A stretch of 61,631 nucleotides of DNA, filler included, from Squatina squatina (lineage: Eukaryota): the NCBI GenBank assembly GCA_031763465.1. It is 4 parts of 4 records of this genome, joined end to end, with 100 filler letters (N's around TTAATTAATTAA, not from the genome) between each part and the next. Parts side by side here need not be neighbours in the genome. Positions count along the whole stretch, not along the records: positions 47,718 to 61,631 come from JARFOE010774625.1; 3 more parts are not named here. One strand, given 5' to 3'. Positions within the stretch are counted from its first letter, which is position 1, and each line of letters opens with the position of its first letter. Below the pieces are notes generated by a model that made no database searches, was not told the origin of the DNA, and worked only from the letters and a program-made list of their open reading frames with translations. Positions 53,530 through 61,522 of this stretch are shown here, in pieces. A program made the position numbers and the translations under genes.

Positions 53530-53572
53530 ATGGGAATCCTCCTTGTTTTAACCCTGTGCGTCTGTTTACCCC
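53530..53572 (+). CDS. Leader (signal peptide) exon of the NAR-TCR V gene
   Basis: ATG...MGILLVLTLCVCLP c|gtaagt, phase 1; 123-bp intron to the V exon acceptor tttccag at 53695. Confidence 0.92.
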
Positions 53573-53695
53573 GTAAGTACCGTTCCTACAAACCGATGTT
53601 GTGTGAATTTAATATAAAGCGGTCTGGGTTCATCTCAGCCCCGTTGTGTGGTTCGGCTCTGATGGCCCGTTAAATTCTCTCTGTTGCATTTCCAG

Positions 53696-53986
53696 GCTCT
53701 TTCAGTCAGTCGGTGGTACAGACCCCGCCAGCGGTGACCAGGCAGGAGTGTCAGTCTCTCACCATCAACTGCGTTTTCTATGGTGGCTTTTATGCTCGTC
53801 CTTTAACGAATGGGGAATTCTTCAGGCAAGCACAAGCCGGGACAGAGTGGGAGGGAATCGCGAGTGGAGAGCGATTTGTTGTGAGGATGAATCGGGCAGA
53901 AAAGACATTTTCGCTGGAAATTCGGGATGTGCGAGTTGAAGACAGCGCCACCTATTACTGTAAAGCTCAGTACAAGTATTATACCG
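53696..53986 (+). CDS. IgNAR-like variable segment (NAR-TCR V), germline, open frame
   Basis: (R)SFSQSVVQTPPAVTRQECQSLTINC...FFRQ...SGERFVVRMNRAEKTFSLEIRDVRVEDSATYYCKA; SLTINC, GRF/KTFSL.I.D..VEDSATYYCKA and the short FR2-CDR2 (47 aa from the Trp41 position to the second Cys) are VNAR hallmarks; followed directly by an RSS. Confidence 0.93.
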
Positions 53987-54024
53987 CACAGTGATGGGCC
54001 TCGGCTTCCCGCCGGACAAAAACT
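53987..54024 (+). other. V(D)J recombination signal, 22-bp spacer
   Basis: cacagtg (53987-53993) + 22 nt + acaaaaact (54016-54024). Confidence 0.95.
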
Positions 54025-54349: not shown

Positions 54350-54422
54350 GGATTTGATACTGACTTGAAACACTGTGTTATTTTGGGAGGATATCACAGT
54401 GAAACAGGCCTGACCAAATTCC
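54350..54422 (+). other. Diversity (D) segment ttattttgggaggatat (54378-54394) flanked by 12-RSS on both sides
   Basis: ggatttgat-12nt-cactgtg [D] cacagtg-12nt-ccaaattcc; perfect heptamers, imperfect nonamers; all three frames open (LFWED/YFGRI/ILGGY). Confidence 0.88.
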
Positions 54423-54735: not shown

Positions 54736-54774
54736 AGTTTTTGTAACAGGGTGACTGAGAGCAGTGTCACTGTG
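54736..54774 (-). other. 23-RSS upstream of J
   Basis: agtttttgt (54736-54744) + 23 nt + cactgtg (54768-54774). Confidence 0.95.
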
Positions 54775-54831
54775 GCCAGTGGTATTATGCTACTGCGGAC
54801 GGATCCGGGACAGTGGTGACTGTCACAGCCG
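54775..54831 (+). CDS. Joining (J) segment of the NAR-TCR cassette
   Basis: QWYYATADGSGTVVTVTA g|gtaagt; GxGT-V-TV motif; phase-1 donor; preceded by a 23-RSS. Confidence 0.93.
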
Positions 54832-55669
54832 GTAAGTGACTCCCAAACCCTCTGCGTCACAGACTGTCCCTGTTAATGTTCACTGACACTTTATTATTTT
54901 GATCAGCATTACTTCAGTCCCCTTCACAGTAAAACAGAGCTGCTTTCTAATGGAGCTTTCCCATTGTCATTTTAGATTCGGGAGCAGAATATGAACCGGG
55001 ATTGAGTCTGGGTGTGAGTCCGGAGAGTGGAGGTGTGAGACCCCCGCGGGAAGGCACTCTGCGGGTGTTTGATCCCAGCTGGACCACCATTGGTTTGACT
55101 GGGACCTCGGGGCTCCCATGGACGTCCCGGGCTCTCAGATCCTGAGTTAGTTTTAAATGAGCGCAGATTGGTGATGCTCCGGGCTCAGCTCTCGGAGTTC
55201 ACTGTGACTGAGAGAGCTCTGTCTGTCCCTGTGAGCCGGAGAGGGGGTCAGAGAGCTCCAGCCTGGGCAAGAGATTGCAGTCAGGATCGGGCAGTGTGGA
55301 TGAGGTGAAGGACTGGTGAACCCAATACTGCAGCAACCCATCCGATAGTTGCCGCGATCCATCCGATACCTGCAGCAGCCCATCTGATATCTGTAGCAGC
55401 AGGAAAAACGGGAGCACAGTGGGTTTCTAATACAAGAGATCCGTTTGAAGGTCTAGAAAGCGTTTCATCATTGGGCACTCAGTAATGGCAATTAGTTGTA
55501 TCGTATCAGATGTTTCCCTGATATTTACTCTAATTCCCTTCATACAAACAACCATGTTCTCTCCATATTCTCGTTTAAGTCGAAATGTAAAAGCTCTGAA
55601 CATTTCTTTATTATTTACATTGATAAATATATTTCCAAATCAATCAAATCGGGGATTGAGGAGGAACTT

Positions 55670-56730: not shown

Positions 56731-57582
56731 CCAGAGAAACCTCCACCCGACGAACACGGGAGAGAATCAGGCAATGGACTGAATGAATTGACATTGTCAG
56801 AGAGCGGGAAGAGCCAGTTCCCAGTGAGTAACAATTAAACCACTGCGGAAACTACACAGACTGAACCCAACCGACAACTGAGAGACTTTGGTGCAGGTTC
56901 TCAGGCTGGCAAAAAACCGCAAACAGATGTAGAAATAAAGTGGAGAAATAATTCAAGTGCTGGTAAAATTGAGGAAAATGGGCCCCATAGAGGCAAACAG
57001 AGCGGGAGGCAGGCAGCAGCTCCATTAATGTGTTAAACTGCAGTAAATATTCACCTTTGACCAATAGATTTGCAATTTCAGCTTGGCTCAATCGGGGCTC
57101 ATGGATTTCACTGCTTTATGTTAGATCTTGCTGTGTAAGCTGATTGTCTCAGTGAGGAGGAGAATGGACTATTGAAATGTTTCCTCTGGTTTACATTGTG
57201 GCAAGAATATTAGAAACAGAAATGTAACAGGGATGGTAGCATCACACAGCACAGGAAGAGGTCCCAGCCCCTTGCTCTTCCCACACCCCGGCTAATGATT
57301 CCTTTTCCAGCAATGATACAATTTCCCTTTAAACATTGCGATTGAATCTGCTTTCAACACATTTTCAGGCAGCGCTTTCCAGCTCATAACAACTCGCCAC
57401 ATAGGAGAAATCTCCTCATCTCCCCCAAACCCCACCCCCGCGGTTCTTTTCGCAATTACATTGAAGAAATTATAAAATTATGTACAGCATGAGCGCGGGA
57501 GGCAGAACTATCCCTGTGATTGGCAAGTGTCAGTGGGTAAATAGCAGCTGACAAAATAAAACTGTCTAATTTAATCCTGCAG

Positions 57583-57888
57583 ATTCCAGTTTCTCAATGT
57601 CTCAGAGATCACCACTACAAACCTCTGCTGCCGGTGACACCATTACATTAAGCTGCGAATATTCAGGGTTTTGTCAGTACACAATACACTGGTACCGTCA
57701 GTCCCCAGGGAAGGCTCCGAAACACCTGCTTCAAAGACACACTTCAGGAGCGGGGAATGAAGAAAACACTGCCGGGGTCCGAATTTCTGCTTCTATCGAT
57801 CCGGCTGAGAAAATCAGCCAGTTAAATATCACAAAACTGCAGCTGAGTGACGCTGCTGTGTATTACTGTGCACTGAGTCCACACACAA
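57583..57888 (+). CDS. Leaderless TCR-delta-like 'supporting' V segment, germline, open frame
   Basis: cctgcag|(D)SSFSMSQRSPLQTSAAGDTITLSCEYSGFCQYTIHWYRQSPGKAPKHLL...SQLNITKLQLSDAAVYYCALS; WYRQ and L.LSD.AVYYCAL are TCR alpha/delta V motifs; phase-1 acceptor compatible with the J donor; no hydrophobic leader exon seen upstream. Confidence 0.92.
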
Positions 57889-57927
57889 CACAGTGATACA
57901 GAGCACGGAGAGAGCTGTACAAAAACC
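57889..57927 (+). other. Consensus 23-RSS of the supporting V
   Basis: cacagtg + atacagagcacggagagagctgt (23) + acaaaaacc. Confidence 0.97.
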
Positions 57928-57951
57928 TGCACATGCTGGGGATTGCAGACA

Positions 57952-57990
57952 CACAGTGATACCGAGCACACAGAGAACAGTTCAAAAACC
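57952..57990 (+). other. Second, tandem 23-RSS
   Basis: cacagtg + ataccgagcacacagagaacagt (23) + tcaaaaacc, 24 bp after the first nonamer. Confidence 0.9.
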
Positions 57991-58004
57991 TTAACGTGGT
58001 ATAA

Positions 58005-61000
58005 TGAGGGATAAAGTGCAGCAGGCGTATTTTATAGAGCTGGAGAAGAGATTTAAAAGCAGGACCTCAAAGGTTATACTCTCCATAGTACTCGCAGTGC
58101 CACGAGCTAGTTAGCACAGCAGCAGCAGGATAGAGAAAGGAATGCGTGGCTGGAGATATGGTGCAGGAGGGTGGGCTTTAGATTCCTGGGACATTGAGAC
58201 CGGTTCTGCGGCAGGAAGGACCTGTTCAGGCCGGACGGGTTGCTCCTCAATGGAGACAGGGAACAATATTCTCATGGTAGGGGTTGTGGGCGGACTGGGG
58301 TTGGGTGCTGTTGTTGGTGGGGTGGGAGATTGCACAAGCTATGGTGGTGGGTTTAAACTAATTTGCTTCGTGACGGGCACCAAATGCACAATTCAAAATG
58401 AGAAACAAACTGCACAAAGGGTTGGGAGTCAGAGATAGCACCAGAGTAAGGAATAGAAAGGTCTTCGATGTGGTCAGACTGATAAAGAGCGGAAGAACAT
58501 CTAATGAAGGTTTAGCCTGCATGTGTTTCAATGCACAAAGAATGGTAAATAATGTTAGTGATCTTCAGGTGCAAACAGCCACATTGGCATATGATATCAT
58601 GGCGATAATGGAGACTTGGCTCACAAAAGGCCAGCGTTGTGCATTACATTTTCCTGGATATAAGGTGTTCGGGAAAGATAGGGAAAGAAAGAAAGGGTGA
58701 GGTGTAATAGTATTGGTTAAGGAGAATGGTACAGTGCTGGACAGAGAAGATGTCCTGAATTTGTCAAGGACAGAAACTATTTGTTTTGAATTAAGGAATA
58801 ATAGTGTTGCCATTGCACGACTCGGTGTATTTTGTCGGCTGTCAACAAGTGGGAAGAATGTAGAGGGGCACAATAGCAGGGAAATTACACAAAGGTGCAC
58901 GAACGATAAAGTTCGAATAATGGGGGCATTGAACTGATTAAGTAGAGACTGGGATAGTAATAGAGTAAAGGGCCAAGTGGGGGGAGAATTTCTCAAGTGT
59001 GTACAGGGGAATTTCTTGATCAGTGTGTTTCCGGCTCAATAAGGAAGGAGACATTGCTGGATCAGAATCTCGAGAATGAGCTGGGGCAATTGGAGGAAGT
59101 GTCAGCAGTGGAACATTTAAGGAACAATGATCCTAGTATCATAAGATATAGATTAGCTGTGGAAACAGACAGGGAGCAATCTGGAGCAAAATTATTTAAT
59201 TGGGGGAATGACAATTTCAGTGGGTTCAGACTTCATCTGGCTCAGGTAAATTGGAATCAAACGTAGGCAGGCAAAATTGTAAACGAGAAACAGGCTGCCT
59301 TTAAAGAGGAGATGGTTCCCGCACAGTCGAGATACATTCACACGAGGGCGAAAGGTGGGGCAATTAAGGCAGCACTGGATGATTAAAGAGATAGAACGTA
59401 AGCTGAAGCAGAAGAAGACTGTGTATGACAGATGTCAGGTTGAGAATACCGATAAGAAACAGCCTGAATATAGAAAGTTCAGAGGAGATGTGAAAAAGAA
59501 AATAAGAGGGGCAAATGGAGATTATGAGAATGGATTTGCAGCTAAACTAAAATGTATTTCTCAAGGCATCTGTAAGCATCTAAATAGTAAATGGATAGTA
59601 AGAGGAGGGGTAGATCCGGTTAGGAACCGAAAGGAAGATCTAAGCATGGAGGCAGAGGGCACACATGAGTAAGTAAATGAGTACTTTGCATCTGGCTTTC
59701 CCAAGGAAGAAGATGCTGCCAATGTTATCGTGAAAGAGGAGGTAGTTTGGTTACTGGATGAGATAAAAATTGATAAAGCGGAGGTACAAAAAATGCAAGC
59801 TGTCCTTAAATTATATAAGAGCCCACCATAGGATATGATGCATCCGAGGATCCTGATGGAAGTAAAATTGGAAATTCTGGTGGTTCCGACCATGATCCTC
59901 CAATCCTTCTTGGATACGTTTGTGGTGCCGGAGGACTGGAAAGTTACAACTGTTACGTCCTTGTTCAGAGAATTGTGTGAGATTAAACCCAGCAGTTTAA
60001 CCTCGGTAGTGCAGAAGACTTTAGAAATGATGATCAGGGAAAACATTAACAGCCACTTTGACAAGTGTGTACGAGTTAAGGAAAGCAAGCATGGATTTGT
60101 TAAAGCCAAATCATATTTAACTAACTTGATTGATTTTTTTGATGAGAGTAATCTCATCGGTGTGGTGTACCTGGACTTGCAAAAGCCGTTTGATAAAGTG
60201 CCACATAAAAGGCTTACCTGCACAGTTGAAGCGCATGGAACAGTTGGGACAGGGGCAAAATGTATACGAAATTGGGTAAGTGACAGTAGACAGAATAATG
60301 GTGAATTGTTGTTCGTCGGACTGAAGGAAGGTACACAGTGGGGTTCCCCAGCAGTCAGTACTGGGACCACAGTTTTTCCTGATATTTATCAATGACTTGG
60401 ACCTGGGTGCACAGCGGAATTTTTCACAATTTGCAGGAAATTTAACGCAGGCAAATGCGACGTAATGCATTTTGGTAGGAATAACTCGAGGCTATATAAA
60501 CTAAGTAGTATAATTCTAAAGGGGCTGGTTGAACAGAGAGACCGGGGGTAAATGTGGATAACTTGATGAATTTGGGAGGGCAGGTTGAGAACGCATTTAA
60601 AATAGCATACGGATATCCGGAGCTTCATAAATAGAGGCATAGAATACAAAAGCAAGGACATTACGATGAACCTGTTTAAAACACTGGTCTGACCTCAACT
60701 GGAGTTTTGTGTCAAATTCCTGGGACCACACTTTAGGAAGGATGTGGAGGCTTTAGCGAGGGTGCAGAGAAGACTTCCAAGAATGGTTCAAGGAATGAAG
60801 GATTCAGGTCCGTTGAAACAGAGTGGAGAAGTTGGGTCGCTCTCCTTAAAGCAGCAAGGGTTGAGAGGAGATTTGATTGAACTGGGCAAAAACTTGAGGG
60901 TTCTAGACATTGTCGATAGAGAGAAACTGTTCCCTTTGGCGAAAAAATAGTGAAGGCAGGACGACTGTAAGGGTATTTGAGGCAAATTCAAACGTGCATT

Positions 61001-61160
61001 TCAAAACAAAATGGGACAAGTACCTGAAGGTAAAAATTGCAGGGCTACGGGGAAAGCTCAAAGGATTGAGACTAGCCAGAGTTCTCCTGCAGAGACTCAG
61101 CATGGACTCGACGGGCCCAGTGGCCACCTTGAGTGCTGCAACATTCCTATGATTCTACGA
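58005..61160 (+). mobile_element. Long decayed CR1 LINE (ORF1 esterase remnant, APE endonuclease, RT, 3' tail)
   Basis: CFNAQRM, YDIMAIMETWL, FPGYKVFGKDR, HPRILMEV, SKHGFVK, YLDLQKPFDKVPHKRL; tail cattcctatgattctacgatt; many stops. Confidence 0.92.
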
Positions 61161-61189
61161 TTTCCCAGCGAGGCAGGACCAGTGAACAT

Positions 61190-61522
61190 GACATTGGAAG
61201 CTGAGATTAGAAATTAGATAACTGCAATTGAAATAGAAAGAGGAGAAATAATATTATATAAACTAATAAAACTTAAAGAGGATAAAACCCCTCACCCCTC
61301 TGGATGACGTACCTTTATTTGATAAGGCAGATAGAACATGTCCAGTGAATTATAGGCCAGTCTGCTTAACATCGGCGGCAGGAAAAATATAATGCGATCT
61401 TCGCTCAAGGTGTAAATAGAACACTATCTATAAACCAGCAAGATAATAATGAATAGTCAACATGGATTTCGCAAGCAATATTCTTCCTTCACACACCTCA
61501 TTGAACTTGTGAAGAGGTAACA
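61190..61522 (+). mobile_element. Additional CR1 fragment
   Basis: aaacttaaagaggataaaacccct, aattataggccagtctgcttaacatcgg (NYRPVCLTS), agtcaacatggattt (SQHGF). Confidence 0.75.

Follow-up and report, generated by a model that had tools for sequence, protein, structure and literature searches.

Antigen-receptor loci follow the rule of one RSS per segment end. In cartilaginous fish, the NAR-TCR cassette was reportedly described by Criscitiello in 2006. It joins a NAR V-D-J unit with a leaderless supporting TCR-delta V (PMC1845163, PMC12227049, PMC6795676, PMC3457774). The shark locus considered here agrees with these accounts, as far as their available text goes, in gene order, in a NAR V without the Trp and with a Cys in the a-b loop, and in a leaderless supporting V with a CDR1 Cys and a 23-RSS behind it; it departs from them in that the RSS behind the supporting V is repeated, an arrangement which the accessible parts of these four sources do not mention. 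The available portions of the same papers and of PMC10322711 contain no mention of a tandem RSS, and the supplement file of PMC3964593, as far as it was accessible, contained neither NAR-TCR nor RSS. A full-text literature search, covering its sources in part, did not turn up any account of RSSs arrayed in tandem behind a V, and the primary papers on NAR-TCR and shark TCR-delta may bear on its novelty.

The delta-Rec and kappa-deleting RS elements, in the available descriptions, are likewise RSSs that lack a coding segment and, when used, delete DNA in a non-productive join; they stand alone and inactivate their locus, whereas the shark spare is joined to a functional V whose own RSS stays usable. 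Like the shark signals, delta-Rec has a 23-spacer. Alternative or cryptic RSSs have been found beside mouse TRBJ1-2, TRBJ1-7 and TRBJ2-6 and human TRGVB, with retention of germline DNA, and the RIC score was not always predictive of RSS use (available text of PMC6857471). Here too a second signal lies tens of bases from the segment end, and when it is used, the coding joint retains germline DNA together with the first RSS, in part or whole. As portrayed in the same text, however, these are chance, dissimilar and low-scoring signals, whereas the extra signal of the sharks is a whole, near-consensus tandem copy that occurs across orders.

The window, that is the whole stretch of 61,631 nt from Squatina squatina (GCA_031763465.1) analysed here, contains a NAR-TCR cassette whose frames and splice phases are all intact (Table 1). 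In the NAR V, F-F-R-Q replaces the canonical Trp motif and the a-b loop has an extra Cys; the absence of the WYRK tryptophan from the NAR V and the extra CDR1 cysteine of the supporting V agree with the criteria given in the available part of PMC1845163. The supporting V sits downstream of this IgNAR-like V and of the D and J that belong to it, the arrangement by which a NAR-TCR is recognized. Its closest proteins are elasmobranch NAR-TCR gene models, with 56-77% identity (60 matches of 145 candidates); the near-length protein search gave 1 match. J-to-V splicing is in phase (phase-1 donor at 54832, acceptor ending at 57582, frame open, supporting V without leader), and homologous models splice J straight to the supporting V. 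D-delta, J-delta and C-delta lie outside the window. A 4-nt duplication that would have damaged the NAR J was considered and rejected, since D-G-S-G-T is the normal motif in homologues. Judged by its sequence, the supporting V is unremarkable for a NAR-TCR on every feature checked here. The RSS spacer of the NAR V is 22 nt long, as compared with 23 nt in the RSSs of the J and the supporting V.

Table 1. Features of the NAR-TCR cassette, the RSS repeat and the adjoining DNA (positions of the window).
Feature	Position	Strand	Description
NAR-TCR V gene	53530..53986	+	leader exon 53530-53572, V exon 53696-53986; open frame; Pfam V-set 6e-9
NAR V RSS	53987..54024	+	single, 22-nt spacer
NAR D	54350..54422 (D = 54378-54394)		between two 12-RSS; consensus heptamers, nonamers with 3 mismatches each
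NAR J	54736..54831 (J = 54775-54831)	+	ends ..DGSGTVVTVTA, phase-1 donor; J motif also in homologues
NAR J 23-RSS	54736-54774	-	single copy
Supporting TCR-delta V exon	57583..57888	+	leaderless, open, CDR1 cysteine; Pfam V-set 1e-17
RSS1	57889..57927	+	consensus heptamer, 23-nt spacer, consensus nonamer; in-frame TGA 57894-57896
Linker of repeat unit	57928..57951	+	24 nt; like the linkers between RSS copies in relatives
RSS2	57952..57990	+	heptamer 7/7, spacer 18/23 alike to RSS1, nonamer 8/9
Further linker copy, start only	57991..58000	+	broken off; self-alignment extends 8 nt beyond nonamer 2
Decayed LINE	58004..61163	+	from ~14 bp past nonamer 2; six-frame read; Pfam RVT_1 6e-7 at 59832-60392

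The supporting V is followed by two 23-RSSs in head-to-tail order, and the double signal is real, as first described. The CACAGTG heptamers at 57889 and 57952 lie 63 bp apart, both spacers have 23 nt with 5/23 positions unlike, and the nonamers agree with the consensus in 9/9 bases in RSS1 and 8/9 in RSS2 (first base A>T), so that the original observation of a second heptamer-23-nonamer with a diverged spacer and one nonamer mismatch was borne out. Its placement of a stop codon at the first heptamer also held: the frame of the supporting V ends with P-H-T-T-Q-stop, the TGA lying within heptamer 1, and a join through the distal signal would thus be non-productive and leave RSS1 intact. By sequence criteria, RSS2 conforms to the pattern of a functional 23-RSS (CAC-led heptamer, 23-nt spacer, A-rich nonamer), and the chance of meeting a 23-RSS with at most one mismatch in 100 bp is ~1e-6, as calculated from base composition. 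A strict RSS scan of the window returned four sites only, namely those of the NAR V, the J, RSS1 and RSS2. A reading of an embedded RSS with an 11-nt spacer at 57952 was dropped, its nonamer having 3 mismatches. The assembly stretch contains 34 N runs, none of them between 47718 and 61631.

The repeated unit comprises heptamer, spacer, nonamer and linker. When unit 1 was aligned to the downstream DNA, the match spanned RSS2 and 8 nt past it, and because the alignment extends beyond RSS2, the 24-nt insert between the signals is the linker of the repeat, duplicated from the sequence 3' of the nonamer. A contig of run X10, which jumps from 58000 to the linker end at 57942, supports a linker start after RSS2; to count this joint as a third unit would be too strong, since it gives two consecutive units and the beginning of a linker. 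TCR-delta D segments carry both signal types, in the order 12-RSS, D, 23-RSS (available text of PMC3457774). Compared with them, the shark insert is likewise a short G-rich stretch followed by a 23-RSS; it differs in having no 5' 12-RSS, in copying the 3' flank of the nonamer and in restarting after RSS2. A D segment was ruled out here, since nonamer 1 abuts the insert and leaves no room for a 5' 12-RSS, and a relaxed scan found no minus-strand RSS at the insert. Of what had been proposed for this stretch, the missing 5' RSS therefore stands and the D-like nature does not.

Homologous gene models were used to follow the repeat in other species; their tails were scored for compatibility with RSS1 at a threshold of 28/39, the maximum of 540 shuffles being 28. 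A second unit was detected in P0014 (Pristiophorus japonicus), with the same 63-nt period as in the window, in P0031, P0032 and P0037 (Hemiscyllium ocellatum) and in P0044 (Rhincodon typus), and P0053 has five units with a 61-nt period. The unit measures about 60-63 bp, and copy number ranges from 2 to 5 across models. The tail end of P0059 is compatible with a second heptamer and is too short for scoring, the tails of P0046, P0052, P0056 and P0057 end before any second unit could appear, and skate tails are shorter still. In P0001, an elephant-shark supporting V, the tail is long yet shows no second unit, possibly through splicing in the model. Sawsharks and carpet sharks represent the two main shark branches, and since the array occurs in both, it must be old, in support of the old tandem duplication that had been proposed.

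Termination of the V frame varies among these models: 29/60 end no more than 9 residues from the last YYC, which is the place of heptamer 1. Reading on through heptamer 1 is seen in the supporting Vs of P0014, P0031, P0032, P0037, P0044, P0052, P0056, P0057 and P0059, that is in carpet sharks and in one sawshark copy, and most other sharks stop there. In such read-through copies a distal join could be in frame, were the distal heptamer intact.

The ladder is apparently specific to the class of supporting Vs, as far as the sequences compared indicate. Of the conventional V tails whose length would have revealed a second unit, 0/6 had one; this is a weak control, five of the six being from elephant shark and gene models being liable to splice. 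The comparison of supporting with conventional Vs gave 7/7 versus 0/6 (p=0.0006) or 6/6 versus 0/6 (p=0.002), both without the P0001 supporting V. Within the window, the NAR V and the J have a single RSS each, and no second copy was found within 300 bp behind the NAR V.

Sequencing runs of relatives were aligned at 80% likeness, covering 8 of 24 candidate runs from 8 studies (organisms A-E and a shark metagenome). The contigs are those of relatives, the reads of the window individual being absent from the runs (best share 0.06), and none is recorded as RNA or thymus. RSS-linker-RSS contigs in head-to-tail order were present in 8/8 runs examined. In X10, X3 and X22, 9 joints that go back were listed, 3 of them with intervening letters unknown, X19 contributed one two-piece record, and a further 8 back-jump joints were listed for X9 (2/2 contigs), X2, X1 and X14. 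In X10, X3 and X1 (9, 14 and 11 records), loose ends before 57888 gave a consensus of nonamer plus linker. Linkers were 11 to 24 nt long. The contigs covered the RSS at several times the depth of the V body, consistent with several units per V, although this depth gives no copy number. A pattern scan for the double RSS in the metagenome contigs returned 0 matches and was uninformative. The search for the double signal in other shark genomes was thus successful in all eight runs and in gene models of several species, and the arrangement is neither private to this copy nor confined to one assembly. In RSS1 (57889-57927), the entire 23-nt spacer is near-invariant across shark runs, with 0-1 differences in X2, X9 and X19, a higher constancy than is usual for a spacer.

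Whether the spare signal is under selection can be judged from the distribution of its changes. RSS2 differs from RSS1 at 1/16 signal positions and 5/23 spacer positions (Fisher p=0.37), and at the neutral rates observed, a count of one or fewer changes among 16 signal bases has a probability of 0.11-0.36. Since RSS1 is near-identical to that of relatives, the six differences must mostly have arisen in RSS2. The overall divergence of 6/39 (15%) equals that of the linker from the majority of relatives (3/23, or 13%, plus one indel; p=1.0), so that a constraint specific to the signals does not show in the window copy. Among the distal linker joints listed, 17/23 resume at or before the first C of the heptamer and 6/23 have a broken CAC, these 23 joints having been counted by eye among those listed, with organism A entering twice via two runs and the alignment favouring intact copies. 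The second heptamer is without its third C in 4/4 orectolobiform models that reach it (P0031, P0032, P0037 and P0044), and in P0053 4/4 distal heptamers are consensus-compatible. Listed variants, from a limited table, fall on 4/9 nonamer and 2/23 spacer positions, a distribution which would fit homogenisation of whole units better than selection on the signals only. The proposal that the signal elements are selectively kept is hence not supported, in view of these comparisons and of the CAC losses in relatives; on the sequences at hand, the pattern is that of a repeat in birth-and-death turnover.

The repeat, its spread, its variation in copy number, its decay in part and the termination of the V frame in heptamer 1 are established. 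Our preferred reading, held tentatively and somewhat short of probable, is that the two RSSs are the remnant of an old tandem repeat whose intact spares may act as extra RAG targets in a two-step joining of the V. Unequal crossing-over or slippage would keep regenerating spares from the selected first RSS, and an intact distal 23-RSS would be a legal partner for the 12-RSSs of D-delta or J-delta. In mouse Tcrd, disordered V-D, D-D and D-J intermediates occur and RAG tracks directionally from the D-J centre (available text of PMC4995090). If this behaviour can be carried over to sharks, the distal copy would be the first that RAG reaches from the D-J region. Its joining to a 12-RSS of D-delta or J-delta would delete the intervening DNA and yield a non-productive product, here and in most homologues, because of the stop in or at heptamer 1; the V with its RSS1 would then lie a few dozen bases from the next 12-RSS, and productive joining might follow. 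Overall, a chain that depends on two successful rearrangements would gain a larger target and pay for it with one D or J.

Nearly as likely, and close behind the reading as extra targets, is that a single ancient duplication gave rise to a minisatellite that is copied with each cassette, is renewed by slippage and conversion and has no net effect on the repertoire; spares would then look good because they are recopied from a selected RSS1 and shark DNA changes slowly. The signal bases of RSS2 without excess conservation, the frequent dead distal heptamers, the range of linker lengths and the LINE that starts right behind unit 2 in the window copy are all consistent with this. However, the array persists in squalomorph and galeomorph sharks and has not collapsed to one unit, the distal heptamers of P0053 are all consensus-compatible, and RAG is unlikely to ignore an intact 23-RSS beside an accessible V. 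An assembly artefact, which the gap-rich draft might suggest, we regard as practically excluded: the units differ from each other and have no gap nearby, and the layout with its 63-nt period recurs in the sawshark model, with like joins in the eight runs. Very improbable, too, is that distal joins extend the receptor loop by 21 germline codons per 63-bp unit. The unit is indeed a whole number of codons, P0014 reads via heptamer 1 into unit 2 and orectolobiform V ends continue in open frame, but the window has its TGA, 29/60 models end at the same place, most periods are 61 nt and would shift the frame, and heptamer 2 is dead wherever orectolobiform models read through.

Two further functional alternatives turn on what a distal join consumes. 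Each such join might burn a D-delta, after which RSS1 would join the last D or J and produce a short CDR3 of low diversity, a sharper form of the two-step reading. The geometry permits such a ratchet, the ladder seems linked to supporting Vs, and in the convergent TCR-mu of mammals, D loss or germline joining leaves the supporting V with a CDR3 that is short or fixed (available text of PMC3457774); the protein search, however, yielded genome-based models and no expressed NAR-TCR CDR3, and dead distal copies are common; we consider the ratchet improbable. More doubtful again is a brake or decoy, by which distal joins consume 12-RSSs and so keep NAR-TCR frequency low or postpone it until the NAR V-D-J join is complete. 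The distal join would be non-productive in the window copy and, by the position of the stop, in most homologues, and the logic resembles that of the delta-deleting element as far as the available descriptions go; yet RSS1 survives every distal join, and the loss of a cassette would be a simpler way to lower usage. Beyond the use of spares as extra targets, the 23-RSS ladder might walk the supporting V through the D-delta cluster by non-productive joins before a short productive join, and RSS copy number might tune V-class usage and loop design in elasmobranchs by raising usage and skipping Ds, a broader proposal which we think unlikely. To our knowledge, no vertebrate locus uses such cis-encoded tuning by RSS copy number.

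The one-RSS rule is broken in distant shark orders, where near-consensus 23-RSSs are stacked behind a single class of V. A NAR-TCR chain needs two rearrangements, and its rise to a useful frequency would be explained by a mechanism that either promotes joining of the supporting V or restricts the CDR3 of that V. Copy number varies between cassettes, which therefore offer a natural dose series for how RAG selects among neighbouring signals. In repertoire analysis, distal joins would be mistaken by the software for long N regions. Should the stack prove neutral, it amounts to a curiosity and an annotation note.

The LINE behind unit 2, presumably CR1-like and with a 5' border placed provisionally, may have cut a longer RSS ladder; a search past it found neither the rest of a ladder nor a target-site duplication (best score 24 versus a shuffle mean of 22.7). 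A second LINE fragment seems to lie at ~61200-61500. In Mustelus asterias, NAR V, supporting V and constant domain are joined in P0021, P0028, P0034, P0035 and P0045 on five contigs, hinting at several separate NAR-TCR-J-C clusters or at haplotype fragments. The repeat unit begins at the heptamer, where RAG cuts, or no more than a few bases away from it (57889 and 57952), and a germline RAG-related origin of the repeat is conceivable.
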